From positions 999 through 64,998 of the forward strand of contig JAGVWC010000012.1 of assembly GCA_018304465.1 (NCBI GenBank): a DNA stretch of 64,000 nt. Direction: 5' to 3'. The DNA comes from Candidatus Iainarchaeum sp. (GTDB lineage: Archaea > Iainarchaeota > Iainarchaeia > Iainarchaeales > JAGVWC01). Every line of letters starts with the position of its first letter. Within the stretch, counting starts at the first letter, position 1. Position numbers and translations under genes: made by a program. This document shows positions 22,401 to 40,500 of this stretch, one piece after another. Under the pieces are notes generated by a model. The model was not told where the DNA came from. It made no database searches and saw only the letters and a program-made list of their open reading frames with translations.

Positions 22401-22882
22401 TAATCGTGCAAGGGCGAAAAGCGGGGTTTGCGACAAAACGGATGGAAGTCGGAAACGAACAGTCTGGATCGTTGGATCCGGGTGCCGCGTGCATTTCTTT
22501 GGATATGGTATCGGCAACCGATTATCCGAATATTGAAACCGAAGCCGATGTCACTCGACCGGGATCGGTCGCGATCGAAATTTCGAGTCATAATTGTGCC
22601 GAAGCTTTTTCGATTAACGTGAAGCGCCCGTCGTTTTTGCGTTCGTCCGTCATTTCCATGGACGAGGATTCGTTTGATCTTGGAACCAACGATTCCAAAA
22701 CCGTTAATATTTCGGTTTCCGCGGACGCGCCCGCCGGAATCATTCCGATCTGGATCGAAGGAAAAAAGAAATCCCAAAACCAACCCAAACAAGTGATCGG
22801 AATCGGAGAGCTTTGGATCACCGCAAACGACGATATTGGAAAAGGAAACGCGTGCTTTGGAATTGTGGAGAAAACCGGGTGA
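19412..22882 (+). CDS. Giant envelope protein, module A (unit 2).
   Basis: 1156 aa. Contains 'YYKIEDKYYAFLDMLNQYVPVYKVIDPIDKVFPS' plus a TM helix. Domain order is the same as in 13583-16990. Confidence 0.85.
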   Translation: MILTDLYYKIEDKYYAFLDMLNQYVPVYKVIDPIDKVFPSLILFSGLFVIGIAVIVAWVLSSSSALPAYISVVNEDGSALTNVSFSLLLDGNSVELSTGESGTAVVLLKTARSDASISASIENYEPVDAKNITLVAGEYYKLQLALSGPRNDFPIVIQFIDESSGNLISGKSVTISFSCQIGDAPSSKSTRNGEVTVEPPAACGTLTAKDVTVTGFESVHDFEISPGTNRKVQISLKPTALPPAKKGALSVLVVDDAGRPVKDAEVVVMDGFGVTQATQLSSGLGMASFSLNEGSYQVQSKVTREGRFSDKNTVVIRQDETTSLTQNIGAIPNDKKVLYKFLDSNSSDPVEGASVWLSQGTSVLVSDGKTDSAGLFEQPVQDLNGSYHLVADHPNYVLGIFPNVVLVKKFDSNAQVARLTRLKDDAAGNPQNYGKVLVTVFDEDRKLIDNATIQLLRSGVDAPIAEKKTGKDGNVLFSRLPAGTYLARAIKEDSNKTSESFSLAVGQIQEIEVALALAKRVFRITALGGSNHVVKINNADVEVKIFDPVAQKFVKKQDGKTGSTGDFKTGGLPVGSTVAFLVSRSDYLSFHSGPYVVPPGKLSDEIKLDFWMYKKEDLAADQHIKIEFADLMDASGTVRPNVLDAGKEYWGVFNITLRDGNFDDPKISVRAGPNALPLATQNNIFIENAEAGAVLGEVSFSSSLNPSDVFATPEGVSSNNHAKLTVVTWDRLSQGTFQAKVKFSVKESLPKGSTVELHYQLAATSATGTKTTPDSTQSFTVGSGVCKQNCPTLFWAFYYSASADEPWVPLDITAPPMLLSNQPYRIGYVIYNLSQTDYTASVSFENKDTLLGLGRSSGRTQTSGFSNQLIAAQGSVETGLSQPLSILPGVGTGGLLEARVATTPDLTELSATRKQILFSIQGARNLLMDSMYDGARLTVIVRDQLTNELVKDALIEVGEINDGSVATGFSKPVQFSTLSAENGVASFSLELGENESVIVQGRKAGFATKRMEVGNEQSGSLDPGAACISLDMVSATDYPNIETEADVTRPGSVAIEISSHNCAEAFSINVKRPSFLRSSVISMDEDSFDLGTNDSKTVNISVSADAPAGIIPIWIEGKKKSQNQPKQVIGIGELWITANDDIGKGNACFGIVEKTG

Positions 22883-22887
22883 AAAAG

Positions 22888-25821
22888 ATGGATCAGAAAG
22901 GAATTTTGCCGTTGTTGATCGCGGGCGCGATCATGTTGATTCTGGGATTGCTCATGACTTTTCTGATGGCAATCATCGGCGTGTCGAGTGCCCAAGACGC
23001 GATTTGGTGCAAGATCATGAAAGACCAGTACAACGCGGAAGACATGCAGGTCTGCAGCGATACGATTATCGAAGCGTTGCAATCCACGGGACAGATTCCA
23101 CAGGATCAGATCAAACTGACGGCCAATCAGGCGTTAAGCGTTCATTGTACTTTTGACGTTTTGGGCGGAGCCTACGGAAGATTCGATCCCTGGCCGCCCA
23201 TTACCGACGACTGCGGATTACGAGGCGCGGTGTGCAAAGACCGCGACGCGGCGGGAGAATTGATTCCCGCGGTATGCGAAGTCGCGAATCCACCGGCCGG
23301 CGTGACCCGGATCGGCGTTGTTTTGGGGGATCAATCGTGTCCGGAAAGCTTTGTGGCCATCGGACCCGCGGCATTCAAGTCTCCGGACGGACAGAATTAT
23401 TGGATTTGCAAGCAAATGGGCGAAGCGACCGTTGCCGCGATTGAAGCGCCGGTTTCACCCAACGGTTCCGCGGATTCCGCATGCAGTGGCGCAGGGTTTG
23501 TTCCGCTTTCAACCAATCCCCCGGCCGCCACGTTGTTTACGGGAAGTGACGGCGCGTCGTACCAATTGTGCCAAAAAACCGGCACCGGACAGATTTTGGA
23601 TATTGTTTCCGTTGAAAAAACCGCCGCGGACACCTCATGCGGCGACTTGTCTCTTTTAACCTCGTTGACAGGCGGAGACGACAAGGAGTATTTGGTGTGT
23701 TTTAAGCAACAAGCGCAGCAAGGGAGTTGTAACTGCGCGACGACCCCGGAACAACTCGCCGCTGTGTCGTGTAGTACGGATCAATGGGCCACGGTTTCAC
23801 CGGAATGCCAGGCGGTTTGCCCGCAGTTTGGAACCGCGTGTACGGAGGATCCCGCAAAACCCATTTGTAATGCGGGCACGCATGCGTGCGTGAGTTTAAG
23901 CGATTATCCCTGCGGACAAGAAGTCTTGGGTTCGCCCGGAGTCAAAGGCGTGGGTTGTGCCGCGGGCCAGGTCTGTAATCTCGAATCAAGCGTATGCGTG
24001 GATGTCGGAGACCAGACCACGGGCGCGTTGTCGCGTCCCAAGTACGCGTTTGATGTCGCCAACACCCAGGACACGGCCGACAGCGTGAACGCGTGTTTTG
24101 GATTCGGAACCGAAGCAGAAACCGTTTCTTCCGCCGGAAAACTCGTGTCCATCGCGCTTGGAATGCCGTCGGAAGACAATGCGAAATTCAGGCTTTCAAA
24201 CGAAAAACTGCTCAGTGGCCTCGGAAAAGGAGGCGTACTGCCGTTCTCGATATCGAACGAATCGTTGAGCGGATCGTACAATTACGCGTTGATCAACGTG
24301 TCCGACACCGTGTTAAAGTCGGACGGAACACTGGGATTGAAAACCGAAGAATTTTTAGTGAAATTACGGGCGCGCGACGCAACGGTTTGTTACAGCGAAG
24401 ACGGTTTGGAGGGCCACACGGGACCCAGTATGGCACCGCGTCTTCGGTATACGTGGTCGTTTGAGGATTCAACCGGAATCGCGATCGATTCGTGCGACCA
24501 GAAAAAAATCGATGGTTCGCCGAACACGGGTTTCATTTATTGTGACGCCACGCAGTTTTCCATTGAATTAAGCAAAAAGCTTAGCCAAATTATTTCGACC
24601 GCGGAAGAAGGACAACCCGTGGCGGCGGATTCGCTGTTGCTTGATTTTAACGCGTATTTGATGCCGGATGGTTTTTCAAGCGATTTTAGGAAAGATTTCA
24701 ATTTTGTGCAGGAAAACGTCGCGTTTTTCAGTCAAAACGACGCGTACAAAAAAATCGCGTCGTATTTTACGAACGAAAGCCGGTTGGTGTTGCCGACACG
24801 GGTTCCAAAGCTTGGAAAATACCGAGTCGTGATCACGCAGGGGTTTGCCCAGGGAAAATCAAACGTGTTTTTCGAGGACAATTTTCCGATCGCCAATCTG
24901 GTGTTGACCATGACGTTGCTTGAGGAAAATCTTTCGAAGAATCCGCTGTATTTCATGCCGGTGGATTACAAAATCGGAACCGTCAAACGACCCGGCGAAA
25001 ACGCAGCGGGCCGCAACGGATACGGAATCGGATTAAGCGCGCCGATGAACGCAAACGCAGAAGTGGGCATTGACGCGGTAACGAGTACCGGCGGATCCGG
25101 TTCGTTTGGATCCGAAAACCAGACCAATTGGCTTTCGAGTTTGGACGCGCCAAACCGCGGAATCGTGCTCGAGTTGTCTTCTCCCACTGTGGATGCGCCG
25201 GGATTGTTTTCATGGAGTATCAGCAAGGCGACGCCGGTCATGATTTCAATTCCGCTAAAAAGCGGCAAGGCCCAAGCGTTTTTTGAATTGATGCAAAACG
25301 AATCCAGCGTGAATACCGCGGGAAAACCCATCGGGCTTTGGACCGGCGCGGGTTCCACCGCGGGCGATCCATGCGCCGACTTTTCGGGTCAACCCTTGCT
25401 TTCAAACGCTTCCGAGCCTTCGCCGGTTGCGGGCACTTGCGCAGAGACTTCCGCGGATGCGCGCGGTTTTTTGCTTTCGGGTAACAAGGAAGGCAAACAA
25501 GTGTTTTACAAAACCGTGATTTATACGCCGGCGGGAAATTTTTCCTTGCGAAAAGCCGCGGGTTGTGAAACCGCGTTTGAAATTCTTTCTCCGACCGACT
25601 TGACGAATGCAAGCCAGTCCACGGTTGGTTTGGGTTACTTTGATTTGCAATTGTCTTCTTTGCAAATGTATTCGGGTACGGGGACCGCCGTGTTTTATTG
25701 GAACCGCGACGTGGTGTTGGATGCCTTAGGCCACCCGCAGAATTTCGTTCCGCGACCGTTGTTTGACCAAACCAATTTGAGCGGTTTTTCCACGGTGACC
25801 GCATGCACTCAGGCAACTTAA
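22888..25821 (+). CDS. Envelope protein, module B (unit 2).
   Basis: 977 aa counted from the ATG at 22888, which lies 5 nt after the module A stop and is preceded by GGGTGA. Has a 27-aa hydrophobic N-terminus, a Cys-rich stalk and the B-core motifs 'TGPSMAPRLRYTWSF', 'IYCDATQFSI', 'DGFSSDFRKDF' and 'LYFMPVD'. Confidence 0.85.
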   Translation: MDQKGILPLLIAGAIMLILGLLMTFLMAIIGVSSAQDAIWCKIMKDQYNAEDMQVCSDTIIEALQSTGQIPQDQIKLTANQALSVHCTFDVLGGAYGRFDPWPPITDDCGLRGAVCKDRDAAGELIPAVCEVANPPAGVTRIGVVLGDQSCPESFVAIGPAAFKSPDGQNYWICKQMGEATVAAIEAPVSPNGSADSACSGAGFVPLSTNPPAATLFTGSDGASYQLCQKTGTGQILDIVSVEKTAADTSCGDLSLLTSLTGGDDKEYLVCFKQQAQQGSCNCATTPEQLAAVSCSTDQWATVSPECQAVCPQFGTACTEDPAKPICNAGTHACVSLSDYPCGQEVLGSPGVKGVGCAAGQVCNLESSVCVDVGDQTTGALSRPKYAFDVANTQDTADSVNACFGFGTEAETVSSAGKLVSIALGMPSEDNAKFRLSNEKLLSGLGKGGVLPFSISNESLSGSYNYALINVSDTVLKSDGTLGLKTEEFLVKLRARDATVCYSEDGLEGHTGPSMAPRLRYTWSFEDSTGIAIDSCDQKKIDGSPNTGFIYCDATQFSIELSKKLSQIISTAEEGQPVAADSLLLDFNAYLMPDGFSSDFRKDFNFVQENVAFFSQNDAYKKIASYFTNESRLVLPTRVPKLGKYRVVITQGFAQGKSNVFFEDNFPIANLVLTMTLLEENLSKNPLYFMPVDYKIGTVKRPGENAAGRNGYGIGLSAPMNANAEVGIDAVTSTGGSGSFGSENQTNWLSSLDAPNRGIVLELSSPTVDAPGLFSWSISKATPVMISIPLKSGKAQAFFELMQNESSVNTAGKPIGLWTGAGSTAGDPCADFSGQPLLSNASEPSPVAGTCAETSADARGFLLSGNKEGKQVFYKTVIYTPAGNFSLRKAAGCETAFEILSPTDLTNASQSTVGLGYFDLQLSSLQMYSGTGTAVFYWNRDVVLDALGHPQNFVPRPLFDQTNLSGFSTVTACTQAT

Positions 25822-25893: not shown

Positions 25894-28800
25894 GTGGTTT
25901 TGATGGGTATTGGCCAAAACCTGAAGGATTTTTACGTTTCGCTTGAAGACGGCTATTACTCCGTGCTCGACAAGGTTTCAAACACCTTGCCGGTGTATAC
26001 GGTCGTGGATCCCGTGGACCGGGTTTTTCCGTCTTTTTTGCTTTTGATTCTGCTCGTGATCGCCGGCATCGGTTTTCTGACTGTTTCTGGGTTTGGCCCT
26101 GTCGTCATCGGCGGCGATCAGGTGTTTGTCAATGTCGTCGTGGAAAACCGGGTGGGGGACAAGCTTCCCAACGTGCCCGTAACGCTCGTGATTAACGGCG
26201 TCTCGACGGACAGGCAAACGGATCAAGATGGGTTTCTTTCGTTTTCGGCTCCTAAAAATTCTTCGGGCAAATTATTGATTTCCATCGAAGGCTATCAGAA
26301 CGTGGATGAAAACTTTTCGATTTCGGATCAAAACGTGGCCAAGCGATTGGTGTTGCGTCAAATCGAATTGCCCAAGACGCGCGTGATCCAGTTCGCGGAT
26401 GCCGCGGGACGCGCGATTATCGGAACCACGATTACCGCGAAATTCACGTGTTCGAATACCGAAGCCAAACTGGAAAAAGACACGTTGTCGTCGGATTCAT
26501 TGGGAAAAATATCGATCGTGGAACCCGCCAACTGCGGTTCATTGCAAGCAACCGTGTTGGGTCCCGCCGAGTACGCCCAAACGCCTTTTTTGGTGAACCA
26601 GCCGTCGCCCGTGATCCGGCTCGAAGCCGTGCAACAGCCCGTCGGAAACGCGCGTATTCGCGTCGAGGACGAACAAGCCGATTTGCTTTCGGATTTGGCG
26701 GCAAGCGTGGTGTTGTACAATGATTCGGGCGAAGTCAAGCGATTGTCACTCGAAAACGGGTTCGCGCAGTTTCGCGATGTTTCCGTTGGATCGTATTATG
26801 CCACCGTGACGCCGACTCAGAACGGTTTTGGTTCGGGAAAAAGCGCGTCGTTTGAAGTCAAGGAAGGCCAGTTGGTGCACGCGACCATCAAACTGTCTAA
26901 AAGCGTCCGGCAAAACCTGACGATTACGGTGCTGGATCTTGAATCGAATCTGTCCGTCAAAGACGCCAAAGTGGTGCTGCAAAGCCGCGGAACGGGAAAA
27001 GAATTGTATTCGAAGGAAACAGATGCAAGCGGCAAAGCGGTTTTCGGTTTGACGGATCCGGAAGAATGGCTTGTGCAGGCAAGCTTGGCGGATTATTATC
27101 CCGACGAAAGCGTAGTGTCGGCGACGGATTCTTTCCTTACGTTAAAACTGGAAAAAATTTCGGGAGAAAACACGGGCATCGTGAATGTTTTCGTAGTGGA
27201 TGAAAAAAACAAGCCGGTTGAAAACGCCAAAGTGCGTTTGCGGTACAAGGAAACGGATTCGATCGCGCCGTACGACGCGTTGTTGACGGATGTCAACGGA
27301 GAAGCCAAGTATCGCGGGGTTAAAGACGGAAAAGAATTGTACGGTTACGCCGAAAAGTTTCCGGCAACCGGCGTTTCGGACGCGGTTTTGATTCAGAAAT
27401 TAACGCCAAACCAGATGAAAGTCAAGATGGAAATCGGCGACGCCTTGATTTCGGTGTCCGCGGTGACCGAAGACAACGAACCCATCGTGGAATCAACAGC
27501 GGAAATATTTGATTCCACCGGGGAACGCGTGGGCGAGATTCCGCTTTCCAACGGCAGCGGTTCGCTTTCCGTGAAAGCCGATAAACGCATCTATGTTGTG
27601 GTTTCAAACCCCGATTTTTTCGGTTATCAAAGCGAAACATTCCAATTGTATAAAGACAAGAAAGTTCAGGTTGTTGCGGCGTTGCCGTCGCGACTCGTGA
27701 GCGGCGGTCCGAAGGTTTCCTTGGTCGGCGTGTTTGACGCATCCGGCAAAACCGTGGACCAAATGGAAGCGGGCAACAACTACATGGTGAGGTTACAGTT
27801 GAAAATCCCGGAGGATTCGTCGTTTGAACAAGCGGGAATTCATTTTAGGGTCGGAAGCCAAGCCTTGATGGAAAACGACCAGATCGTCATCAAGGGAATC
27901 AATGTCGCCAACGCGGCGTTGGTCCAGGGGTCCACGTTTAATCCGCCGAAAGGGCAAGTCATTGATTTGAACCCGGCGAATCAGTCGTTTGGCGACGCCA
28001 AATGGGCCAATATCGTGTTTTCAAACCCGGTTCCGCAGGTGTATAACGTGGCCGTGGATGTACGCGTGAAAAACACGGCGACATTAAACGCTCCGATTCC
28101 GATGTTTTATCGCGCCTGGGGCAAAACCAACCAAAGCACGATGGTGCGCGATCCGCAGGACAACGAATTGGGCGAATCCTTTCAGACCGGAAGACTGCAG
28201 GAATTATATGCCAACGCTTATCCCGTGACGAGATTTTTTGAAGGCGCGGGAAGCGAATGCGATGATTACGTTTGTTATTCGAATGTCCGTTTTTTTGACC
28301 ACAATCAGGGACTCTATATTCAAAGTCCGTTTGAACTGGTCAACAACCGGGATTACGAGTTTTCGTTTTCCTTGACGAATTCTTCCCAAGCCAATTTTTC
28401 GGGGGCTTCGTTCCAGTTTTCGATTTTAACCGACGGAAAAGAAAGCCGGGATTACGTCGTTTCGGATTACCGTATTTCGAACGCGTCCGCCCAGCCGTTT
28501 TCCGGTGGAAGCATGGCCAACAACAAGCTTGAAATCGACGCCGGAAGCATGGTGGTCAACGCGGGAATCAGCGGGTCCGTAAAATTCCGTCCCACGCGGA
28601 TTCTGCCCGGATCCATTCTGCTCAAAACCGTTTACCAAGGCGAAATCGTGAGCCTTAAAGAAATTTCGTTCGTCACGATCGCGGATAAAAAACTCGTGAT
28701 TGGTCTTTCGCCTGATCCGATTCCGGCGTTAATCGAAGTTCCGGCCGTGGTGTCGGTTGCCGAAGAAGGAAACGAAGAACCGGTTTCGGAAGCGGTCGTG

Positions 28801-31800
28801 ACATTGATCCGTGAAACCCGTGACCGCGTGCGGCAAAACCAAACCAAGATGTCAAACACTTTGGGAAACGCCGAGTTCGTGATTGCGGCGTCGTCTCCCG
28901 GAACCCGCATTATTGTCGAAGCCCAAAAACCAAATTTTATCTCCGAGCCATTGGTTCGCGTGGTCGATGAAAACGTTTTGCTTTTTTATCCGAACGAATT
29001 GAGTTTGGCGCTCAAAACCCAAAGTCAGCGCGAAGCCGAAGCCAAAGTAACGATTGAAAACGTGACCGCGACCCAGATCCGTTTATCCAAACTCCAGCTT
29101 GTTGGCGATTTCGCGGGCTTGTTGGATCAAACCAAAATCAACGGGTACTTGTCCACCTTGATCGGAACCAGGGTAGATCCGAATTCCACCCAAGAAGTCG
29201 TTCTCTTAAAAGCGTTTTTGTCTCCGACCGCGACGTTGTTTTCGAACCAGTCATTGGACGCGTCGCTTGCCATCGAAGCCGTGGATTCAAGATTGAATAC
29301 CAAGTGGGTGTTTTCGGTTCCGGTCAAGATCTCCGTTTCGATTGACGGCATGCCCGAAAACGAATCGTGTCTTTCGATCGACGAACCCCTTTGGGAAGAT
29401 TCAAGCCTGGAAAACAATTTGCAGCATTCGTTTACGTTGACCAACAATTGTAAAGTCGCGGGAAGCGCGCTTTCGCTTCGCGGTTTGGCCAGCCAAGTGT
29501 TGTGGAATGATAACGCCGTTGGAAACGTGGAATTGACGTTAACGGACGCGTCAAACCCGAATAATTCCATCACCCAAGTGCTGCGCGACAATGCGTGGTC
29601 GCATTTGTTCGATCAAATGTCCGCGGACGGCGTGTATTACGGCGTTCTTACGTTTGTGCCCAAAAGCGGAAAAACAGGTCAAGAAGCCCGGTTTACCGTG
29701 GACTTTGCCGCACAAACCCAAACCGAAAGCGGAGCCAAAAAATTGTCGACCAAAGAACCCATTACCGCCAGTATTCTGATTACGAATTTGCAGTTTTGCA
29801 TGCAGTATTCCGCCACGGGGGCGGGCACCCGAAACGTTGCGGAGTTTCCGAATCCCTTAAACGATTCGGAGTCCACCGAACCCAAACCGCCGGATTCAAA
29901 TCCTTCGAACGGAACCGTGACCGCAAAGCCGGTGAATGAATTGGTTTCCGCGACCGTGCAAACGGCTACGTCCGATGATGAATTTACTACGGTCAAACTG
30001 GGCACCGGAAACGACGCGAAGTTATTGATTGACATGAGCCGTTGCGGTGAACTTCCCATTGACATCGTGTTGTGCAAAGGAGACGATTATTGCCGCGGCG
30101 GAACCGAAGACGGCGGAATTCAGGTCAAGCCATTGCAGTTTTCGCTTTCGCCGGACACGCCTGTTCGCGAAGTCACGGTGTCGCGCATGGAAGTGCCGGG
30201 AATCTACGGTTTGACCGTGTGGGCGCGTACCAAAGGACGCAACTACAACAAAGTCGCGACCATCGACGTGTTGGTGGATCCGCGCACCGAAGACGGACAG
30301 TATTTTTCGCTTTCCAAATACGAATTGTTCATCAAAGGAACGGGAACCAAAGATTCGGTCGTGCTCAAAAACAGCAATTACGTGACCACGACCACCGTGG
30401 ACGCGCCCGCCAGTATGTGGGGACAGAAAAAACAACCCAAAGACAACGGCATGGGTTCCATGTTGCCTTTGCTTGGGGCCGCGATGCTGCCGCAAATGCT
30501 TCCGCCGCTGCTCGATGGAATGCAAGGCGCGTTTCAAGGCGCAAAAGATTTGTCCAATAAAAACCTGGGGGCTGTAAAAGAAGCTCAAACAGCCTGTAAA
30601 AAAGCGGATGCCGGAGTTGAAAAATTAAACAAAGGATTTGATAAAGAATTTTCAGATCCCGCTGGAATCATTAACAAAAGCAAAACCGACTTGCAGGGAG
30701 AATTCGCGGACGATAAGGGTTTAACCAGCCAATGTGAAACATTTCAAACCATTGTCAACTCGTGTCCCACGGGATGCGTTAGTTCATCTGGAGTTGACGA
30801 CTTGATGACCAAATGCAATGCGGCGGCGGATGGACTCAAAAAAAGCGTGGACGATTCACTATTGAAAGAAGGAGAAAACGGAGGGGTTCTTTCCAATCTG
30901 GATTCCCAACGTGACATCTTATCCAAACTTGACTCGACCGCGACCACCACGTGTGGCGCGTTGCCCACTGGAAAATTCGATAAAGGCGCCGGTATTTCAG
31001 ATCAATTCAAATTGCAGGCAGAAACCTGCGGCACCCAATGCCAAGTGTTAAAGGACAGCATTACTGGACCCAATGGACTGGATATGTTCAAAAAAACGGT
31101 TGGGGACGCAACCAAAGAACTTGGCGACTACAAAAAAGAGTTATCCGATCTCTCGGACGTGTCGAATAATCAAGCGCTTTCCGAAATGGCGAGCGCCAAA
31201 GTCACTGCGTTTACGGAGCATATGACCGAACCAAGCGACGTACAATATTGTACTCCTTGTTATGCCAAAGCAGACGAAGCGCTTTCCACATTTAATACTG
31301 CGTATAAGGAAAAAATCCAGACCGTGAATCAGAAAGTGGACACGATTGAAAAACAATTGTCGGACCAATATGGCGAAAACGGAGCCGCGTATAAAGAGGC
31401 GCAACAAGGGTTAAGTGACGCTCAAAAAAGCTGTGGACTGGGACAACAAGCACTAACCGACCAATCAAAAGCCACGCCGGTGGTATCCGATGACGCGGGA
31501 ATGCGCCGGTTCGATTCGGGCGCCTTAAGCAGCATGATGTCGCAAGTCGCCATGCTGGGTTTGATGTCGGGTGCAATGGGAAACGGCTTCGCGTCCGATC
31601 CCACCGAAGATGCTCCGCAAGAACACGTGCAACAACAACAGCAAGTGTTTGCGATTAACCTGCCAAGCGATGCGCGATCGACGACAATGAACAACGAAGG
31701 AATCGGCGTGTCCATGGATGCCGAGAACGTCAAGGTCATGGGAAAAACGGATTTGCGCGACCAGCGTGTGCCCGTGATTTTCGAAAACGCGGGTCTCGAA

Positions 31801-33714
31801 GAAGACAAGCCCACGTACGCGGTGATGACTATCGACGCGGTGGAACACGTGTTTGACGCGGTCACCAAGATTCCGTTCGGGGATTCGCGTTTCCTGCAAA
31901 CCGATTCGTGGGGACTAGGCCAGTTTTTCGGAAAACAACAGAATTACAACCAGAAATTCCATTTAAGATTCGTTTCAAAAGACACCTTGGTGGAATTGCC
32001 GCCGGTCATCGGAGACCAGTTCGCGTGCACGCAAGGCGCAATGGTGGGACAAACCGGACCGGATGCGTTGCCGAGAATCAAGTTGAAGTGGAACTGGACC
32101 GATATTACGATGGATTCGTGCGACGCGAAAAACCCGGAGTTCATTTACTGTGACGCCACCCAATTCTCCATCATGATGACCAAACGCTTGCAGGCCGTCA
32201 ACGACTTTTTGGCGGCAAACCCGGGTATTCCATGTCCCACGAACTGGCTGGAAGAACAAGTGCAAGCCGAGCTTGATCCGTTTAACGAATACTTGGTCGC
32301 GTTGGATTTTAGAGAATTCCAAACGAGCGATTACGTGACGGGCTGTTGGCTGCCCAAAACCACGGACATGTTCGACAACAAATCCGCGTTGGAGTTTTAC
32401 GTGGATGACTACAAGGAAAACATCCGTTGGACCGACCAGGTGCCGAATTCGCAGGCCTTGCACGAACTCTTGTATTTCGACGCGTATTTGATCCAGGACG
32501 GATATACGTCCGACTTTAGACAAGACTTCGCGCATTATTTTTCGAATGTGTCGTTTGCGGATACGCCTTCGTTTTTCAACCAGGATCCGACCGGTCACAA
32601 TTGGAGCAAGTATTTTTCGTTGGAAGGAATCACGTTCACGCAAAAATTCACGGAAAACGACCAGCTTCCAACCAGCGGCTTGTACCGCGTGGAAACCGTC
32701 GCGGATTTCAAGAACGATGACTGGGCGTTTTTTGACGGACAAACCTTAAACGCGTCCATCAATGTCGGTTTGCTTGCGTTACAACAGAGTTCGCTTAACA
32801 GCGTGTTTTATTATCTGCCGTTTGACGGCGAAGTTGGAACCGAAGGACAAAGTTTGGATCGCCAGGGATACGGAACCGGATACGAAATCGCGAATCATCA
32901 AGCGGTGCAGATTTCAAGACAAAGCGGAATCACGACGTTGGCCAACGCGGGATCGAATCCCGTGCAAGTCGTGGAAGTATCCACGGGTGGATCGTTTGAT
33001 TCCTTAAACGCGTTTGCGTCGCAACGCGGATTCATTTTGGATATTGAAAACAAGGACTTGACCAAGAAAGTCTTGCGGTTTACGCCAAGTCTTGCAACCC
33101 CGATTTTGCTGAAAGTGACGCAAGGCGCGACACCCGAACCATTCGGCGCGTTTTATACGATCCGAAACGCGGATATTCCGCAGAACCTGGGTCAAAGCGC
33201 GGCGTATTGGAGCGGTGCCGGCGCGTGTTTGGACTTTTCAGGTAACCTGGTCGCGGACGCGTGGGATTTCCGCCCCGACCGCAAAGCCCAGTCATCGGAC
33301 CGGATTCCGAACTGGACGATTTCGTACGGCATTGATTGGTCCGCGGCGGAAACCGCCGGAGACGTGTTCTTGAAAACCGTCATGTATTCGCCGTTAAACG
33401 GTCGTTTTTCGATTAATGCCGCGTCCGACAACGTGTTGATCGCAACGCCGGACCAGCCGTTTGGAAAAGCCCAGGATCTTGCGGGAGTATCCACCATGGC
33501 GTTTAATCGCCAGGGAACCACGGCCCAAGACCGGATTACGGCGTTGGATGATTTGTTTGAATTGGTTTTCGAGCAAAAAGTGTGCGTGACCAATACGGGG
33601 ATTCGATCCAGTTTCTGGTGGAACCCCAAAACGGTTTTCAACCAGGCGGGCGGATCCGGAAGCAGTATTTCGGATATCGAAGCCACGTTGCAGTCCGGAA
33701 AAACCTGCCGATAA
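25894..33714 (+). CDS. Giant envelope protein, fused modules A-linker-B (unit 3, 2606 aa).
   Basis: The N-terminal 'FYVSLEDGYYSVLDKVSNTLPVYTVVDPVDRVFPS' plus TM is A-like. The C-terminal 'TGPDALPRIKLKWNW...IYCDATQFSI...DGYTSDFRQDF...FYYLPFD' is B-like. The start is GTG at 25894 or ATG at 25903. Confidence 0.85.
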   Translation: MVLMGIGQNLKDFYVSLEDGYYSVLDKVSNTLPVYTVVDPVDRVFPSFLLLILLVIAGIGFLTVSGFGPVVIGGDQVFVNVVVENRVGDKLPNVPVTLVINGVSTDRQTDQDGFLSFSAPKNSSGKLLISIEGYQNVDENFSISDQNVAKRLVLRQIELPKTRVIQFADAAGRAIIGTTITAKFTCSNTEAKLEKDTLSSDSLGKISIVEPANCGSLQATVLGPAEYAQTPFLVNQPSPVIRLEAVQQPVGNARIRVEDEQADLLSDLAASVVLYNDSGEVKRLSLENGFAQFRDVSVGSYYATVTPTQNGFGSGKSASFEVKEGQLVHATIKLSKSVRQNLTITVLDLESNLSVKDAKVVLQSRGTGKELYSKETDASGKAVFGLTDPEEWLVQASLADYYPDESVVSATDSFLTLKLEKISGENTGIVNVFVVDEKNKPVENAKVRLRYKETDSIAPYDALLTDVNGEAKYRGVKDGKELYGYAEKFPATGVSDAVLIQKLTPNQMKVKMEIGDALISVSAVTEDNEPIVESTAEIFDSTGERVGEIPLSNGSGSLSVKADKRIYVVVSNPDFFGYQSETFQLYKDKKVQVVAALPSRLVSGGPKVSLVGVFDASGKTVDQMEAGNNYMVRLQLKIPEDSSFEQAGIHFRVGSQALMENDQIVIKGINVANAALVQGSTFNPPKGQVIDLNPANQSFGDAKWANIVFSNPVPQVYNVAVDVRVKNTATLNAPIPMFYRAWGKTNQSTMVRDPQDNELGESFQTGRLQELYANAYPVTRFFEGAGSECDDYVCYSNVRFFDHNQGLYIQSPFELVNNRDYEFSFSLTNSSQANFSGASFQFSILTDGKESRDYVVSDYRISNASAQPFSGGSMANNKLEIDAGSMVVNAGISGSVKFRPTRILPGSILLKTVYQGEIVSLKEISFVTIADKKLVIGLSPDPIPALIEVPAVVSVAEEGNEEPVSEAVVTLIRETRDRVRQNQTKMSNTLGNAEFVIAASSPGTRIIVEAQKPNFISEPLVRVVDENVLLFYPNELSLALKTQSQREAEAKVTIENVTATQIRLSKLQLVGDFAGLLDQTKINGYLSTLIGTRVDPNSTQEVVLLKAFLSPTATLFSNQSLDASLAIEAVDSRLNTKWVFSVPVKISVSIDGMPENESCLSIDEPLWEDSSLENNLQHSFTLTNNCKVAGSALSLRGLASQVLWNDNAVGNVELTLTDASNPNNSITQVLRDNAWSHLFDQMSADGVYYGVLTFVPKSGKTGQEARFTVDFAAQTQTESGAKKLSTKEPITASILITNLQFCMQYSATGAGTRNVAEFPNPLNDSESTEPKPPDSNPSNGTVTAKPVNELVSATVQTATSDDEFTTVKLGTGNDAKLLIDMSRCGELPIDIVLCKGDDYCRGGTEDGGIQVKPLQFSLSPDTPVREVTVSRMEVPGIYGLTVWARTKGRNYNKVATIDVLVDPRTEDGQYFSLSKYELFIKGTGTKDSVVLKNSNYVTTTTVDAPASMWGQKKQPKDNGMGSMLPLLGAAMLPQMLPPLLDGMQGAFQGAKDLSNKNLGAVKEAQTACKKADAGVEKLNKGFDKEFSDPAGIINKSKTDLQGEFADDKGLTSQCETFQTIVNSCPTGCVSSSGVDDLMTKCNAAADGLKKSVDDSLLKEGENGGVLSNLDSQRDILSKLDSTATTTCGALPTGKFDKGAGISDQFKLQAETCGTQCQVLKDSITGPNGLDMFKKTVGDATKELGDYKKELSDLSDVSNNQALSEMASAKVTAFTEHMTEPSDVQYCTPCYAKADEALSTFNTAYKEKIQTVNQKVDTIEKQLSDQYGENGAAYKEAQQGLSDAQKSCGLGQQALTDQSKATPVVSDDAGMRRFDSGALSSMMSQVAMLGLMSGAMGNGFASDPTEDAPQEHVQQQQQVFAINLPSDARSTTMNNEGIGVSMDAENVKVMGKTDLRDQRVPVIFENAGLEEDKPTYAVMTIDAVEHVFDAVTKIPFGDSRFLQTDSWGLGQFFGKQQNYNQKFHLRFVSKDTLVELPPVIGDQFACTQGAMVGQTGPDALPRIKLKWNWTDITMDSCDAKNPEFIYCDATQFSIMMTKRLQAVNDFLAANPGIPCPTNWLEEQVQAELDPFNEYLVALDFREFQTSDYVTGCWLPKTTDMFDNKSALEFYVDDYKENIRWTDQVPNSQALHELLYFDAYLIQDGYTSDFRQDFAHYFSNVSFADTPSFFNQDPTGHNWSKYFSLEGITFTQKFTENDQLPTSGLYRVETVADFKNDDWAFFDGQTLNASINVGLLALQQSSLNSVFYYLPFDGEVGTEGQSLDRQGYGTGYEIANHQAVQISRQSGITTLANAGSNPVQVVEVSTGGSFDSLNAFASQRGFILDIENKDLTKKVLRFTPSLATPILLKVTQGATPEPFGAFYTIRNADIPQNLGQSAAYWSGAGACLDFSGNLVADAWDFRPDRKAQSSDRIPNWTISYGIDWSAAETAGDVFLKTVMYSPLNGRFSINAASDNVLIATPDQPFGKAQDLAGVSTMAFNRQGTTAQDRITALDDLFELVFEQKVCVTNTGIRSSFWWNPKTVFNQAGGSGSSISDIEATLQSGKTCR
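32065..32190 (+). repeat. 126-nt segment that is near-identical to 40179-40304 (4 mismatches).
   Basis: Direct base-by-base comparison of the two stretches. Both encode 'ALPRIKLKWNWTDIT.DSCDAKNP.FIYCDATQFSIMMTKRL'. Confidence 0.9.
33541..33627 (+). repeat. 87-nt segment that is near-identical to 41637-41723 (3 mismatches).
   Basis: Direct comparison. Both encode 'ALDDLF.LVFEQKVCVTNTGIRSSFWWNP'. Confidence 0.9.
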
Positions 33715-33747: not shown

Positions 33748-34437
33748 ATGAAAAGACGATCACGGACACCAACGCCCCCCATCCAAAACCGATCCCGGCA
33801 AAAAGTAGGGCGAAGAACGGTGTTACGAACGGTGGTTTCGGCGGCGATCGTAATGCCGTTAGGTTGCGGTTTAAAGATGCCGCGGACCGAAAGAATTTCC
33901 CAGGTAAAGGAGTATGGCTGGCGGCATCGCACCGGAAATCTTCGGCGGTTAATTGTTTCCCAAAAAGTGTACCCAAAAGTGCCGGTTGAATATTATTTGG
34001 CTGAAATTGCGCGACTGAGTGCAAAAGCAAGCCGGCAAAAGCTGTCCCCGCAAAGCAACGTTTCTCCCGAACTTGAATTAATTACCCCTCTTTTTTCGGC
34101 CGAAGCATTAAAGTGGATGGTGAAAAGAAAACACGTTTCCCAGATTGTTGCCGATGAAATTAAAAAATACCAGAAAGGGGTTCCCAAGCAACGGATTCCA
34201 GTGAATCTATATTTGACCGCTCGCTCGGAATGGACGCGGTATGTGCATGAAAACCTAAAAACCAGGTCTTTTTTTACGGAGCTTCAATGGACTCCAAAAA
34301 AGCAGTTGGATTTTTTGCTGGTGGCAATGAAAGATTGGAATTCGTATCAGCGCGTGATACAGCAAGGACATATTCGAGATGCGGCATCCGCCAAGTATTT
34401 ATCGGAATTAAAGGCTTATGCCGAGACATTTCAATGA
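33748..34437 (+). CDS. Hypothetical basic protein (229 aa) between the two fused giant genes.
   Basis: ORF with an Arg/Lys-rich N-terminus ('MKRRSRTPTPPIQNRSRQKVGRRTVLRTVVSAAIVMPLGCG') and a helical-looking remainder. No family recognised. Confidence 0.5.
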   Translation: MKRRSRTPTPPIQNRSRQKVGRRTVLRTVVSAAIVMPLGCGLKMPRTERISQVKEYGWRHRTGNLRRLIVSQKVYPKVPVEYYLAEIARLSAKASRQKLSPQSNVSPELELITPLFSAEALKWMVKRKHVSQIVADEIKKYQKGVPKQRIPVNLYLTARSEWTRYVHENLKTRSFFTELQWTPKKQLDFLLVAMKDWNSYQRVIQQGHIRDAASAKYLSELKAYAETFQ

Positions 34438-34520: not shown

Positions 34521-37500
34521 GTGTCAACCGAATTTAACGAAGCAGTGAATCAGTTCAAGGAAAAATGGGTTGCGCCGCATCGCACCGTGATTTTGAGCGC
34601 TCTCGTGGCCGGGTTTATTCTGGCGTCCTTGTTTGTTTTTTTTCTGATTCCAAACACATCCACGGTGACGATCCGGTTTGAAGACCAAAACCATGTCGCT
34701 GTGAAAAACGTTTTGGTGGTCGTCCGTCAGCCGTTTTCGAAAACGTTGGAGTCAAACGCTTCCGGAACCATTGAAGTGATCGCGTCGCCAAACGACACGA
34801 TTTTTTTTCGCGCGGAAAAACCCGGGTTTTCGGTCATTGAAGCCAACATCACGCCCGAAAATCGGAAACCGGTGCACGTGTTTGAATTGGAATCCGCGTC
34901 CAAAACCAGTATTCAAACCATCGTGTTTTCGGGGCTGGATAATCAAAAAATTGTCGGAAAACAACTCGAAGTCCGGTTGAGTTGCGCAAATCTAAATGCG
35001 TCGATGGCACCGGCTGAAAAAACGGTTTCTTCGGAGGATCCGTTGCCGGTCACGTTGCCCAAGGATTGCGGCGGTTTGGTTGTTTCGGTTGTTTCTCCCG
35101 TGGAGTATGCGGGTTATTCATATTCGGTGAGCGCGGAATCGGGATTGATCCGGCTGAAAACAAAAAAGGCGGAAGCGGCAAGACCCGGCGGGTCTTTGAC
35201 GGTTCGGGTCACGGCCGAAAAAGGAAGCGTTTTGGCGTCGGATTTGGAAGCGGTGTTGTTCTTGGATTCGAAACGGTTGTCGGAACAGACGGTTCAAAAC
35301 GGTTCGGTCGTGTTTGAAAACCTGGAACCCGGAAAATACGCGGTTCGGTTGCATGACCGCAAAGGCGTGTGGGCGGACGCGGTTTCGGAGATCGCGTCGT
35401 TGTCTTCGGGAAAAAAAGGAGCGGTGTCGGTTTCGCTTCGTCAAGCCGTTGGAAAAATTTCAATGCAAACCTCGGATGCTTCGTCTTCTTTCCCGGTCGC
35501 GGGCGCGTGGGTGTCGATCGTGAATCCTTCAACGAACGCGTTGCTTGGCATCGGACAAACCGATCACGCGGGAAAAATCGTTTTTTCTTTTTCGCAAGCG
35601 GTTCCAAGCGGATTGGTCGCGGATATTTTCGCTCAAGGGTATTCGTTTCTTTCTCGGCGGCCCGTGACGGAACAAAACGAGTATCATTTGATTCCGGTTC
35701 AAAAAAAATCGGTTCAAATCGTTCGGGTGGTGGATTCTTCCGGGCAGTTGTTGGAAAACGCGCGGGTGTTTGCCGCGAACCCGGATTCGTTTGAAGCGTT
35801 TTCTTCGGTGTCGTATCAGGCAACGGATCATACGGGAACCGCGCGGTTTGAGGGGTTGTCAGGGCCCGTCGGGTTTGTGGGTTCCAAAGGATTGTTAAGC
35901 GGAAAATCAGGCGTGGTGGAGATCGGAAAAGGAACCGAGGTGCGCATCGTGCTGGTTTCGTCTGCGGCCACGATGCAGATTCGGGTGACGGATGAATCCG
36001 CTAAAGGAATTGCCGGTGCCCAGGTGTCGGTCAAAAACCGGTTAGGCGGAATTAGCGAGCTTAAAACCGGTTCGAATGGATCGGTGGGATTAAACGCCAA
36101 TGAAGGGGACGAAGTCCAGTTATCGGTTTCAAAAGAAGGGTTTTCGAGGGTTGAAACGGATTGGTTTTGGGTGCAACACCAGTCCGAACGGATCGTGGTG
36201 TTATCCAAGCCGTCTTCTCGGGTTTTGATCGAATGGGAAGGTGTGTTTGATCCGAACGGAAAACCCGTGACCAGTTTGTCGCCAAAAAGCAGGTATTTGG
36301 CCCGGATAGCGGTCAGCGTTCCGGATGATTCGGTGGAGACCGGCGTGATGATGGCGGTCGGAAACAAAACCGACGTCACGGAAGAAAACGCGTTCATTTC
36401 GTTTGTGGATTCCACGGGAATGGATATTTCCATGGGAAAAAAGCTGGACAGCACCTTAAGTGAAACGGAATTGGTTTCGGCTCAAAACTTGGATTTTTCA
36501 AAAGCCAAATGGGTTTTGTTGCGGCAGTTTAATCCCAAGCCGGGCAAACGGTTGGTGGGCGTTTGGTTTGAAACAACGGCGGGTTTTTCGGAGCCGCTTG
36601 AAATCCAGTTCAGGGCGTGGAACCGCTCTGCGGGCGGGATTCAACTGGATCCGGCGGATTCGCAAGCGCAAGCAAAGCAAAAGCCGCTTCTTTTTTCGAA
36701 CATGCGCGCAATCACGGTGGCTGCAAGCGGTTTGGGTTCGGATTGTCTGGAAACGATTTGTGTTTCAAACCTTCAGCTGGAAACCGAATCCGAAGTGGAT
36801 TCGGAACCGCCGTTTGACTTAGCGTCTTCTGCACATGGGTCTTTGCATTTGTCCGTTAAAAATACGTCCAGTGAAAACCTGAATGAATTGTCGTTTTCGG
36901 TGGCAAAAACCCAGGATGACGCGGCGACCCCGCTTTTTACCGTGCAGGAAATTCGCGTGGCGGGACAGAAAAAAGACGCGCCGGTTTTGTTTGATTTGAA
37001 AGCGGGAGAAGAAAAAGAAATCGAGGTCGTGTTGGAAGGAAAAACCACGGGACCGTTCGGATTAAAATTGTCTTTGTTGAACCGGGAAGAACCGTTGTGG
37101 GAAAGGGAAATCGCGTTTAATCCGAGTCAAAATCGTTCCTTGAAAATGAATCTGGATGCGTTGTCGGTGCCGGCGTTTTCCCCGTTTTTGCTTTCGATTG
37201 TGGTGCAAGACGCCGCGACATTGGAAGCGGTTCCGGACGCGCTCGTAACGATCGAGAGAACGTCTCCGGACGGGTCCGTTTCGGTGTCTTCGATGCGTGC
37301 GGATAGTCTTGGAACGGCGGAATTTGATTTTACGGGAGTGCCAAACGGCACAAGTTTATACATAACTTCTTCCAGCGATGGCTTCGATCCCTCCTCCGCA
37401 ACGCTTATGGCCACTCCGTTGCTTTCGTTTTCCCCGCCGTTTATCGGGGTTTTGCTTTCGGGTGAAAACAGGGATGAAAAAGCGGTGATTTCGGTTCAAA

Positions 37501-40500
37501 ACCTTACGACCGAAAAAATCAAAGTGAACCGGATTGATTGGACGGGAAATTTCTTTTCGATCATCAACATGACCAAACTCTTGTCCGACGCCGATGCTTT
37601 TTCGGGAAGCGAAATCGGAAGCGGCGGTTTTGTCTCGGCCGAGTACGCGTTTAATTTGCATTCCGCGTTTTCTCCGACAGTAGACGAGTCTTTTTCGGGA
37701 ACCCACCTCGTCGAAGCGGCTTTGGGCGTCCAGAAATTCGTTTTCGTTTTGCCGGTGGAAGTAACCGTGAAGGCGAATCCGCAGACCGCGAATGCGGAGG
37801 ATTGTCTTAAGGTGAGCCAATCCGCGTGGAGCGGAAACACCGTGGAAAATCGCAGCGATTTCGCGTTTGTATTGGAAAACAATTGCGATGAGGATTTTTC
37901 GTCGCTTGAATCCCAGGTGGTTTGGGACAAAAATCCGATTGGAAACATCGAGTTGTCTTTTGACCAGCAGTCGCCGGTCGCGCTTGCGGACAAACAGTGG
38001 GCGTCTCTTGCGGAAACGGTTCCGAAAAAAGAATTCGCCGGAATACTGACGTTTACGCCAGGCGAAAACGAATTGGGGCAAGAAGCCAAGTTTACCGTGT
38101 ATCTCGCGGGGGTCAAACGATCCGATAAAGCCAGGGTGTTTTCCAAGACGATTTCGGCGAGCATCGCGGTGACGAATCTTGAAAATTGTTTGGTGTATTC
38201 GCCACATCCGGGCACGGGGTTGTCGATTGAGTACGGAAAAGAATCGGCGTTTTCCTTGGACGCGTCCGGCTGCGGAGAACTGGATCTTTCGGTTGAATTG
38301 TGCAAAGACGATCCGGGTTGTTCGGGCGGAGCGCCGGAAGGAAAAATTTCCGTGGAACCGCTTGAATTCGATTTGGGTGTTGAAAACCCGGTTCAGGAAA
38401 TCAGGGTCAAAGGAATGGATTTGCCCGGAACGTACGACATCGGGGTTTTTGCGCAGACGCCATCAATCGATTTTGTTCAGATCAGTACCATGGCGATTCG
38501 GATTAAAACGGATCCGAACGCGTTTTTGGATCTTGAAAAAACCGAGTTTTTCCTTAAAGGCGCCGGCAAAACGGATTCCGCGCAGGTGGAAAACAGGAAC
38601 CTTTCAACCATCGTGAATGTGGAAGCGCGTGCCGAAGACTGGGCGCGATTGTCCGGAGAAAACCTTGCAGCGTTTTCGTTGGCTGGCACAGGCTTGTCAC
38701 CGGCAGGCGCCTCGGCGTTGGTGGACGCGGCCACGGAGGCCAAAAACCAGGCCGCCGAACTTGCGCGTTCCACGGCGCAGCAAATGGAACAGGCCCAGCA
38801 ATTGTCCCAACAAGCCATGAACCAGCAGAACGATTCGGCCCAAAAGACTTCGGACGCCGAACAACAGGTGAGCACCGCGGCCGGGCTTGGTTCGCAAGGC
38901 GTGAACATGATTCAGATGCTTTCGACGCAATGCGCCGCGGTTGAAACCGCATGTGTTACTCCGATTTATCCCGCGTGCCAAGGCATTCCGCAGGCATGCG
39001 CCGCTGCACAGAGTATTTTCGGAGCGTTAAAAGGCGCGGAAGGCGCGGGAAATGCCGCGGCCGGCGCGGTGCAAGAAGCCCTTGAACAAACCGGTCCCCC
39101 TGGAGTCGTTTTGGCGAAAGGACAAAAAGATTCCTTGTTTAGGATCTTGTTGGCGGGCGCAAACGCGGTGGGTTCCGCCCAAACCGCGTTAACGGAAATT
39201 AATAGTGCGGAGCAAACCGCGGCCGTGGAGACCTCAGCGGAATTATCCCAAGGCGCCGAAAGCGCAAGCGGTCTTGGAGCCAGTTCGTGTCAGAACAGCA
39301 ATCAAGCGCAGCAATCCGCGCAAGAAGCGGGTCAGAAAACCGGGCAAGCGGGAATGAACCTGGGATTGGCGGGCGCAAGCATCGGAATGTCGGTCACGCA
39401 AGCCGCGGCCATGGAAGCGTCCATGGGTTCGTGTACGTGTCCCGCGGCGGTTTCGATGAAAAACCAGTTTTATGCATTTAAAGGGGTGCAAACGAGTCTG
39501 GATGGAACCAACGTGGCCGCGACTTCGGCCGCCAATGACCAGGCCAAACCCAGTCAGCAGCAAGCGCAAATGGGGTCGCAGGCCGCGTCCGCGGCGGCTT
39601 GTGCGGCAAGCGAACAGTTAAACAAGTTCGCGGATGCGTCCGAACAGTTGTCCGGGGATCTGAACGGGGAAAACGAGGAAGTCACCCAAAATATCGCGGC
39701 GATTTTGGCCGGCGGGGTTTCTACCGGATACCTGGAAGGCATTTATCGTCCGGATGATGTGGTGCGAAATCAGTTAACGGGATTTGTGATTAATTTGAAA
39801 GCGGACGCCAAAACCGTTTCAACGGGAACCGAAAAAGTGTCAGGCGTGTTTGAAACCACGGATGCCTCGGTCGTGGGCGAATACAAAACCCAGTCCGCCG
39901 GCGTCGTTTTCTCGAACAAGTCGCTTGAAGAAGAAACGATTTTTGCAACCGTCGTGCTGGATACGAATCTGCACGAATATGCCGATCCTACGGTTGTTCC
40001 GGCGGGAGCAACGGGCTGGGGGCCTTTCCAATTGGAGTCGTTAAGTGAAGTGTCGTCGCACCAGCAAAAATTCCATGTCAAGTTCACGGGAAAAGAAGAG
40101 CCCCAAGTGATCGAACAGCAAGGACAACACGCGGTTGCATGTCAAAGTGGAGCCTTGTTGGGCCGAACCGGTCCGGACGCGTTGCCGAGAATCAAGTTGA
40201 AGTGGAACTGGACCGATATCACGTTGGATTCATGCGACGCGAAAAACCCGGATTTCATTTACTGTGACGCCACCCAATTCTCCATCATGATGACCAAACG
40301 CTTGTACGCGTTACGGGAGTTTTTGTCCCAAAACACCCATCTGAGTTGTCCGACGAACACGTACCAGGTGAACCTGGACGCGGAAATGAGCGGTTTTAAC
40401 CGGCAATTGAACGCGGGATTCGCGTCCGCCAATTATGTTTCGGGTTGCTGGTTGCCGCGTTCCACGCGCTTGTTTGACAAACGCTCCGCGCTGGAATATT

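Follow-up and report, generated by a model that had tools for sequence, protein, structure and literature searches.

Among described systems, the closest to the proteins considered here are the two-component or stalked surface layers (S-layers) of archaea, such as SlaA/SlaB of Sulfolobales and tetrabrachion of Staphylothermus, and the giant surface proteins of the SPEARE type that Hamm and colleagues reportedly described from DPANN archaea in 2019. The proteins in question are encoded in a 64,000-nucleotide stretch of DNA from Candidatus Iainarchaeum sp. (contig JAGVWC010000012.1, positions 999 to 64,998; hereafter the window, meaning the whole stretch that was analyzed), which belongs to a genome of 1.25 Mb that is ~92% complete and which carries archaeal marker genes (split rpoB and rpoA, EF-2 and EF-1alpha) at 50-63 kb. 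Between 13.6 and 41.8 kb of the window lie four same-strand units, whose modules A are paralogous to one another, as are their modules B, according to BLAST comparisons among the four; units 1 and 2 are split into two genes each, and units 3 and 4 are fused. The subject of this study is the junction between modules A and B in the fused giant protein of unit 3, where two hydrophobic segments flank a long helical linker.

Like the archaeal S-layers, the present family features large exported beta-sandwich arrays of glycoprotein type, a helical or coiled stalk element, adjacent co-oriented genes for outer and anchoring parts, and both split and single-chain forms. It differs from them in that the anchor is N-terminal and sits on the stalk, each genome has five to six paralogous units, two hydrophobic arms enclose the helical part in the middle of the protein, and there is no match in sequence or fold; searches of Pfam, NCBIfam and PDB sequences and structure searches with Foldseek revealed no homology to S-layer families beyond generic immunoglobulin-like (Ig-like) sandwiches. 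With giant repeat adhesins and SPEARE-type proteins the family has in common that they are multi-thousand-residue surface proteins of DPANN archaea with one anchor, long Ig-like repeats and a presumed function in contact, whereas Pfam and NCBIfam gave no sign of protease, nuclease or ATPase domains in the present proteins and module B constitutes a family of its own. To our knowledge, the mid-protein hydrophobic junction has no counterpart among giant adhesins or SPEARE-type proteins. Two further parallels concern the junction itself. ClyA-family toxins also present a long antiparallel helical bundle with short hydrophobic segments, but here the bundle is a hypervariable internal insert in an anchored protein of 2,600 aa without sequence similarity to the toxins, so that ClyA is a lead and not a match. 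The Gly/Ala-rich, uncharged helix pairs of some relatives resemble glycine-zipper hairpins (the glycine-zipper clan of Pfam), in contrast to the arms of unit 3, which are rich in Met and Pro, stand 332 aa apart and have no Pfam match.

The family has barely been mentioned in print. One sentence of the Forterrea paper describes a tandem cluster of five giant membrane-anchored proteins and suggests a role in cell-cell interaction (PMC5905446). That cluster can be likened to the present one by description only: it comes from the same phylum, is a tandem cluster of giant proteins and occupies several per cent of a ~1-Mb genome. In contrast to what is set out below, the paper does not describe a domain architecture, a junction, hydrophobic arms, split and fused variants or a protein family (PMC5905446).

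Layout and conservation of the unit 3 junction

From its N terminus, the unit 3 protein consists of a short motif, a transmembrane (TM) anchor, the module A stalk, the junction and the module B head. The anchor (residues 48-66) is its only TM-grade segment, and the N-terminal profile and such TM-grade segments are likewise present in the A proteins of units 1 and 2, in unit 4 and in relatives. Module A is assembled from CarboxypepD_reg, Big_1 and MG-type beta-sandwich domains. An earlier note on this DNA had pointed to two hydrophobic segments around a Cys-bearing, K/E/D/Q-rich linker of about 330 aa; all of these were confirmed in place (Table 1), the linker being helical by both periodicity analysis and AlphaFold2. 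The linker contains K (10.2%), D (9.6%), Q (6.9%) and E (5.4%) along with 11 Cys residues, and the three Cys motifs singled out in the earlier note map to 30733-30777, 31027-31041 and 31246-31260. An amphipathic periodicity of 3.4-3.7 residues is found in several stretches, with z-scores of 3-5 in several windows. N-glycosylation sequons were counted as a marker of a location outside the cell, and their numbers in the linker are too low to be told from the shuffled expectation.

The profiles that delimit the junction, one for the last beta-sandwich domain of module A ('A-end') and one for the N-terminal beta domain of module B ('B-start'), match 168 and 179 family proteins, respectively. Between these borders, the junction was measured in ~150 fused proteins, and the layout of two hydrophobic arms recurs throughout them. 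Because the same layout was measured across fused relatives, segments 1 and 2 are identified as the pair of arms that belongs to a junction module common to the fused proteins of the larger phylogenetic group described below (Group II), in which the arms are rich in Gly, Ala and Met. Compact junctions, of 60-100 aa, hold two adjacent uncharged helices, of which the first is Gly/Ala-rich (insertion free energy, dG, +1 to +4) and the second is of membrane grade (-4 to +1); a CPPC or CxxC motif often stands between the helices, an acidic 'GEDPC' flank follows, and the second helix directly precedes the DY[VI]INL motif. Relative to the 'DY[VI]INL / QVFAINL' start of module B, segment 2 of unit 3, and not segment 1, occupies the very site of this membrane-grade helix. 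Expanded junctions, of 200-1000 aa, have one weaker arm at each end (dG +2 to +9). Unit 3 (403 aa between the profile borders, with arms placed at residues 1522 and 1877), unit 4 (374 aa) and a further unit of the same genome on contig C13 all belong to the expanded class. In total, 46 junctions were scored as compact and TM-grade and 45 as expanded and weak, and junction length correlated with minimum dG (Spearman rho 0.39, p = 7e-7, uncorrected for phylogeny). The recurrence of the layout, noted earlier for unit 4, extends across the family, and its unusual nature holds.

Within the clade of unit 3, the arms and the linker have evolved very differently. Across six clade members, identity to unit 3 is 0.59 for segment 1 and 0.47 for segment 2, compared with 0.44 for module A, 0.55 for the module B core and 0.20 for the linker, whose sequence is hypervariable and for which very few relatives of its own were found. 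Segment 1 lies at the 85th percentile of conservation among all 24-aa windows. Conservation of the two segments was seen in eight to ten cluster representatives, and the clade motifs are F[GD]SMLPLL.A..[LV]PQML.PL for segment 1 and ALSN.L.QA.QMGLM.AAMG for segment 2. Because they are as conserved as folded domains while linker identity is at 20%, the two segments are best read as conserved islands under purifying selection and not as decaying sequence. The linker is not featureless, however: despite lengths of 318-826 aa, it contains exactly eight Cys residues in six of the seven clade members, unit 4 included. Module A contains 10 Cys residues and module B 8 or 10, so that the counts are even in all three regions of all seven members with the sole exception of the unit 3 linker. 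As the linker count is kept at eight through such variability, a conserved eight-Cys framework that is probably disulfide-bonded is suggested.

Unit 4, the sister of unit 3, has a junction in which A (21%), Q (13.5%), S (10%) and G (9%) dominate. The equivalents of its arms, at 38664-38720 (LAAFSLAGTGLSPAGASAL) and 39690-39746 (NIAAILAGGVSTGYLEGIY, residues 1724-1742), are barely hydrophobic, and those of its clade relatives are not hydrophobic at all. The earlier note was correct that unit 4 repeats the layout of unit 3 with an A/Q/S/G-rich linker, but the sequence that it quoted as the counterpart of segment 2 (residues 1611-1636) is mid-linker, the true counterpart being the second arm just named, which lies immediately ahead of module B. 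In the unit 4 clade, the low-complexity-looking junction aligns with an identity of 0.40-0.48 compared with 0.29 for the module A stalk, the reverse of the pattern in the unit 3 clade.

Structure prediction was confident for the domains on either side of the junction. AlphaFold2 was run on residues 1440-2606 of unit 3 with 51 sequences, and the mean predicted local distance difference test (pLDDT) score was 79.6. The strands of the last A domain (model residues 30-66) scored ~90, the N-terminal beta domain of module B 80-96 and the B core above 90. The linker was predicted as all-helical, with ten long helices of 14-52 residues at a pLDDT of 55-77. In a compact homolog (L050), module B also folded well, with a junction pLDDT below 50. 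Foldseek searches with the unit 3 model against PDB and BFVD returned nothing at E<=1e-3 and only weak matches to long-helix proteins, and with the L050 model only generic Ig-like sandwiches of 100-130 residues. Likewise, Pfam and NCBIfam searches with all six module proteins found generic beta-sandwich domains in module A only and none in module B or the junction; the junctions of unit 3, unit 4, the C13 unit and L050 had no Pfam match at E<=1; and neither the B core nor the linker nor a B profile had a match among PDB sequences. Readings of the arms as Met-rich copper-binding elements or as resembling the M domain of signal recognition particle were considered and set aside, as nothing supports them.

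Table 1. Positions of the junction elements and of the units that contain them (window coordinates)
Feature	Coordinates	Strand	Description and basis
Last beta-sandwich domain of module A, unit 3	30211..30429	+	Residues ~1440-1512; 'A-end' profile; ends just before segment 1
Segment 1 (arm 1)	30451..30522	+	MGSMLPLLGAAMLPQMLPPLLDGM; residues 1520-1543 counted from GTG 25894; Pro/Met/Leu-rich
Linker, 332 aa	30523..31518	+	K/D/Q-rich, helical, 11 Cys; composition, periodicity, AlphaFold2
Segment 2 (arm 2)	31519..31590	+	GALSSMMSQVAMLGLMSGAMGNGF; residues 1876-1899; Gly/Met/Ala-rich, directly before module B
Module B N-terminal beta domain	31636..31998	+	Residues 1915-2035; 'B-start' profile
Module B core, conserved head	31999..33711	+	Residues 2036-2606; no Pfam/NCBIfam family
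Unit 1, split pair	13583..19344	+	A 13583-16990, 1135 aa; B 16987-19344, 785 aa; translations, BLAST, Group I in tree
Unit 2, split pair	19412..25821	+	A 19412-22882, 1156 aa; B from ATG 22888 to 25821, ~977 aa; Group I in tree
Unit 3, fused giant protein	25894..33714	+	2606 aa from GTG; open reading frame list, translation, identical database protein
Unit 4, fused paralog	34521..41810	+	2429 aa; 48% identity to unit 3 over module B; sister lineage, 98-100 support
Unit 4 junction	38649..39771	+	Residues 1377-1751, borders defined by hidden Markov models; A/Q/S/G-rich, helical, 8 Cys

Hydrophobicity and membrane topology

The dG values used here are biological-scale values of Hessa summed over 19-residue windows, that is, crude sums of central-position values. 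By this measure, segment 1 has a dG of +8.9 kcal/mol and segment 2 of +5.1 kcal/mol, and the unit 4 equivalents range from +5.6 to +7.5 kcal/mol, compared with -4.1 to +0.3 kcal/mol for the window's six genuine anchors or leaders, all of them N-terminal. Kyte-Doolittle averages are in agreement (1.31 for segment 1 and 1.21 for segment 2 versus 2.1-2.8 for the genuine anchors). Segment 1 contains four prolines, and neither segment is amphipathic, the hydrophobic moment of segment 1 being low. On the crude scale, both arms of unit 3 fall well below the thresholds for membrane helices, which is not what a protein that crosses the membrane at each of them would show. A Tat-like motif, 'MRRFDSG', that precedes segment 2 was dropped from consideration, as it is not kept in relatives.

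The location of the junction can be approached from the modules that it connects. In the earlier note, module B of the split pairs was said to begin with an anchor. Most N-termini of split B proteins look instead like cleavable Sec signal peptides, with a basic n-region, an h-region and AxA-type sites, and unit 1 B has a lipobox-type leader (LLILLILMGC); the leader of unit 2 B is long and hydrophobic (GILPLLIAGAIMLILGLLMTFLMAIIGVSSA/QD). Because split B proteins carry signal peptides, module B is taken to work outside the cell. Module A lies downstream of the N-terminal anchor and is made of typical extracellular domains. With A and B both outside, the junction therefore has to cross the membrane either zero or two times. 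For compact junctions, two crossings as a hairpin would be the natural and most likely reading, with stalk and head both outside; each of the 37 non-redundant compact hairpins has its strong helix in second place, a turn free of charges and an acidic flank downstream of that helix. Zero crossings are expected in the unit 4 clade, since the arm equivalents of the relatives are non-hydrophobic. For unit 3 itself, a cytoplasmic linker is unlikely because its arms are far below the hydrophobicity of membrane helices, and most likely the junction does not cross the membrane and the linker would lie outside.

Fused and split units across the family

The core of module B from unit 3 was used to search 1.84 billion cluster representatives, with a cut-off of E<=1e-3. 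It matched 599 of them, and most of the best matches were fused proteins of 2,300-2,600 aa. Hundreds of homologs align with units 3 and 4 along their entire length. The invariant residues of module B include those of a GxTGxxAxPRxxxxWxW block, of YCDATQFS and FWWNP, and a C-terminal Cys; as mapped by BLAST, the B core starts near residue 298 in unit 1 B, 508 in unit 2 B, 2020 in unit 3 and 1849 in unit 4. A genome locus scan with an 8-sequence alignment placed related loci in Iainarchaeota/Diapherotrites, with Ca. Iainarchaeum andersonii and AR10, whose genome is complete, among them. The B core was detected in 123 of 151 genomes of one order (51 of the 55 high-quality ones), in 1-8 copies, and was absent from the other classes sampled. 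By this distribution, the family appears to be a large group of giant cell-surface proteins specific to one order of Iainarchaeota (DPANN). Family members were also encountered on two contigs filed under bacteria of the candidate phyla radiation (L018 and L028, in Woesebacteria and Falkowbacteria bins), and these contigs probably represent mis-binned Iainarchaeota.

Trees of the B core were built with FastTree (212 sequences) and with IQ-TREE under the LG+C20 model with posterior mean site frequencies (PMSF; 73 sequences), both unrooted and with no outgroup. The same two groups emerged from both. Group I (27 sequences, support 100) contains unit 1 B and unit 2 B along with the majority of the split forms, and a small number of fused proteins of ~2,200 aa that lack a hydrophobic junction, such as one from AR10. 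Group II contains 185 sequences, all of them fused apart from one putative split member, and within it units 3 and 4 are sisters in a small, well-supported clade that is nested among ~165 fused proteins. At least four changes between the split and fused states are required on the tree, and an approximately unbiased (AU) test rejected the joining of the unit 3/4 clade to Group I (p = 0.007, for a group that was named after the tree had been seen). Furthermore, the array formed by units 2-4, in which two fused genes come after a split pair, already exists in a relative with a unit 3 ortholog that shares only 36% identity with unit 3 over the linker region, and split-plus-fused arrays recur in other genera. 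Because of the tree placement, the AU test and this shared array, units 3 and 4 did not arise recently through the fusion of split pairs such as units 1 and 2.

Several observations on the arrays and their relatives may be recorded alongside. The fused Group I protein of AR10 (L103:4266-10763, 2166 aa) carries a von Willebrand factor A (vWA)-like 'DIAFLIDTSGSMG' motif between A and B and no hydrophobic junction. Some split units of other genera (L090, L093, L094, L097, L100, L102 and L104) are three-gene units, with an A gene (~1,250-1,500 aa), a middle open reading frame (ORF) of ~580-610 aa that matches no profile, and a B gene with a signal peptide, and a fused paralog of ~2,200 aa often lies directly downstream. 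The ortholog of unit 2 in the syntenic array L009 is a pair of 1152 + 966 aa. The two giant genes of that array are only 60 nt apart (L009:18010-18071), and it has no counterpart of the 229-aa ORF that separates units 3 and 4 in the window (33748-34437).

Other side observations concern gene boundaries within the source genome. The longest ORF of unit 3 begins at the GTG at 25894; its true start is probably the ATG at 25903, because MGIGQNL opens both the identical protein in the database (2603 aa) and every ortholog. On contig C13, a further unit (L054:6616-14267) comprises a 1340-aa A ORF that ends at a TGA overlapping the TTG of a 1210-aa ORF (ATTGA). The second of these ORFs has no export signal; it encodes module B, preceded by the final domain of A and by a coiled linker with Met/Gly-rich arms, and together with the first looks like a fused gene split by a frameshift, be it a pseudogene, an assembly error or a case of recoding. 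The same contig holds a sixth giant ORF (L054:29-5875), which is very divergent, has the longest branch of the tree, runs off the fetched stretch and ends in a B-like module (…LLIKDNYSQQLKDNF… / …VCISSSGG…HWNAKQIK).

Interpretation of the junction

Taken together, we favor, with a probability of roughly 60%, the reading that the unit 3 junction is an expanded form of a conserved junction module, in which two hydrophobic arms, themselves conserved, enclose a helical insert that evolves fast around a framework of eight Cys residues, and the whole is exported together with stalk and head. The protein opens with a short motif and a single membrane anchor, after which come a stalk of ~1,450 aa made of Ig-like and CarboxypepD_reg-type domains, the junction, and a conserved head of ~690 aa. 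Where the arms are adjacent (60-100 aa), they would pair in the cell's own membrane as a hairpin, leaving stalk and head outside. In the lineage of units 3 and 4, an all-helical insert of 320-900 aa with eight Cys residues separates arms that are too weak to span the membrane, the first of them also broken by prolines, and the junction would be exported with A and B as a helical spacer, shaped like a rod or a bundle, that keeps stalk and head apart. The conserved arms may then serve as buried packing elements or as elements at the membrane surface.

A number of observations weigh against this reading. The AlphaFold2 model is of low confidence precisely at the arms (pLDDT below 50 for segment 1 and 41-59 for the helix of segment 2) and of only moderate confidence for the linker. 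The dG values are crude central-position sums, and the low translocon score of segment 1 is due largely to its four prolines; on the octanol scale, on which Pro and Met count as hydrophobic, its mean hydrophobicity of 1.05 is at the level of a true TM helix. The compact hairpins show no positive-inside signal in their turn. The linker of unit 3 departs from the eight-Cys framework by three extra Cys residues, alone among the seven clade members. Finally, in the unrooted tree, all 34 members of the clade that is basal within the fused group are of the expanded and weak type, and compact TM hairpins could be the derived state.

The alternative put forward in the earlier note was that an A gene and a B gene like those of units 1 and 2 were fused, and that the signal anchor of the formerly independent B gene survives, in decay, as segment 1. 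Its position at the A/B boundary, the presence of split and fused units side by side, and a local alignment of MLPLL-GAAML with ILPLLIAGAIML from the unit 2 B leader (Smith-Waterman score 26) all speak for such an origin, and the unrooted tree would be compatible with a fusion of great age, at the root of the fused group. However, the same score was reached by 21 of 606 unrelated TM-grade segments from ORFs of the same genome; because 3.5% of unrelated segments score as high, the resemblance is ascribed to chance. Segment 2 scores at the null mean against this leader, and the ortholog of unit 2 B in L009 has a different leader (GFPMMMILLVVGLIAV) that lacks the ILPLL motif. Few parts of the protein are better conserved than segment 1, units 3 and 4 group with fused proteins to the exclusion of Group I, their split/fused array was already in existence in a relative with a divergent linker region, and the fused members of the split-rich group, as in AR10, have no hydrophobic junction at all. 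A fossil anchor is therefore considered quite unlikely, and a lack of similarity to the B-type anchors is an outcome that the note itself had named as refuting it. The same note had also considered that, if the segments still insert, the fused proteins would thread the membrane three times and expose the linker to the cytoplasm. In unit 3, the 332-aa linker might then bind metal or act in signalling. For the many relatives with membrane-grade helices at the junction, three passes are plausible, and compact relatives very probably have such a hairpin; for unit 3 one can point to the uniform hydrophobicity of segment 1 on the octanol scale, to CxxC-type and CxxxC-type spacings in the linker that could bind metal, and to an 'RR' before segment 2 with an acidic flank after it. 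Against this stand the strongly positive dG values of both arms and the prolines of segment 1. Moreover, the RR is not conserved in relatives, the unit 4 clade combines the same layout with non-hydrophobic arms, which puts its linker on the same side as A and B, and the even Cys counts fit disulfides as found in ectodomains. For unit 3, three passes are thus unlikely.

A third possibility is that the junction could be a deployable, membrane-active device that inserts into the membrane of a neighboring (host) cell in the manner of ClyA-type toxins or viral fusion peptides. The best of the weak Foldseek matches are indeed ClyA-family pore formers (AhlB, SmhB, ClyA and YaxA; E 0.01-0.1, probability 0.6-0.95), the arms are hydrophobic, non-amphipathic and conserved, and DPANN archaea are mostly cell-contact symbionts; the one printed comment on proteins of this kind suggests cell-cell interaction (PMC5905446). 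The structural matches nevertheless fall short of E<=1e-3, their TM-scores of 0.2-0.3 and root-mean-square deviations of 17-37 A are as expected for any long helical bundle, and the linker model behind them has moderate confidence. In addition, the linker is hypervariable and dispensable in many relatives, and the unit 4 clade does without hydrophobic arms. We regard this possibility as very improbable. It would be highly speculative to go further and see in the arms and the disulfide-framed, fast-evolving bundle an element for membrane insertion against a partner cell, with the variability of the linker reflecting an arms race or partner specificity. The exported helical spacer remains the preferred reading of the unit 3 junction.

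DPANN archaea of this group spend several per cent of tiny genomes on these giants, for which the literature offers a one-line suggestion of cell-cell interaction. The present analysis removes the evolutionary account of a fossil signal anchor and makes a structural model of the family concrete, with a stalk, a tether or spacer, and a head. The mid-protein hydrophobic elements are conserved, positionally fixed arms, and the module to which they belong spans a range from compact hairpins of membrane grade to arms split around a helical insert of up to ~1,000 aa. In the unit 3 clade, it is the linker between the arms that evolves fast, and it may be a candidate site of specificity for a partner or for the environment.

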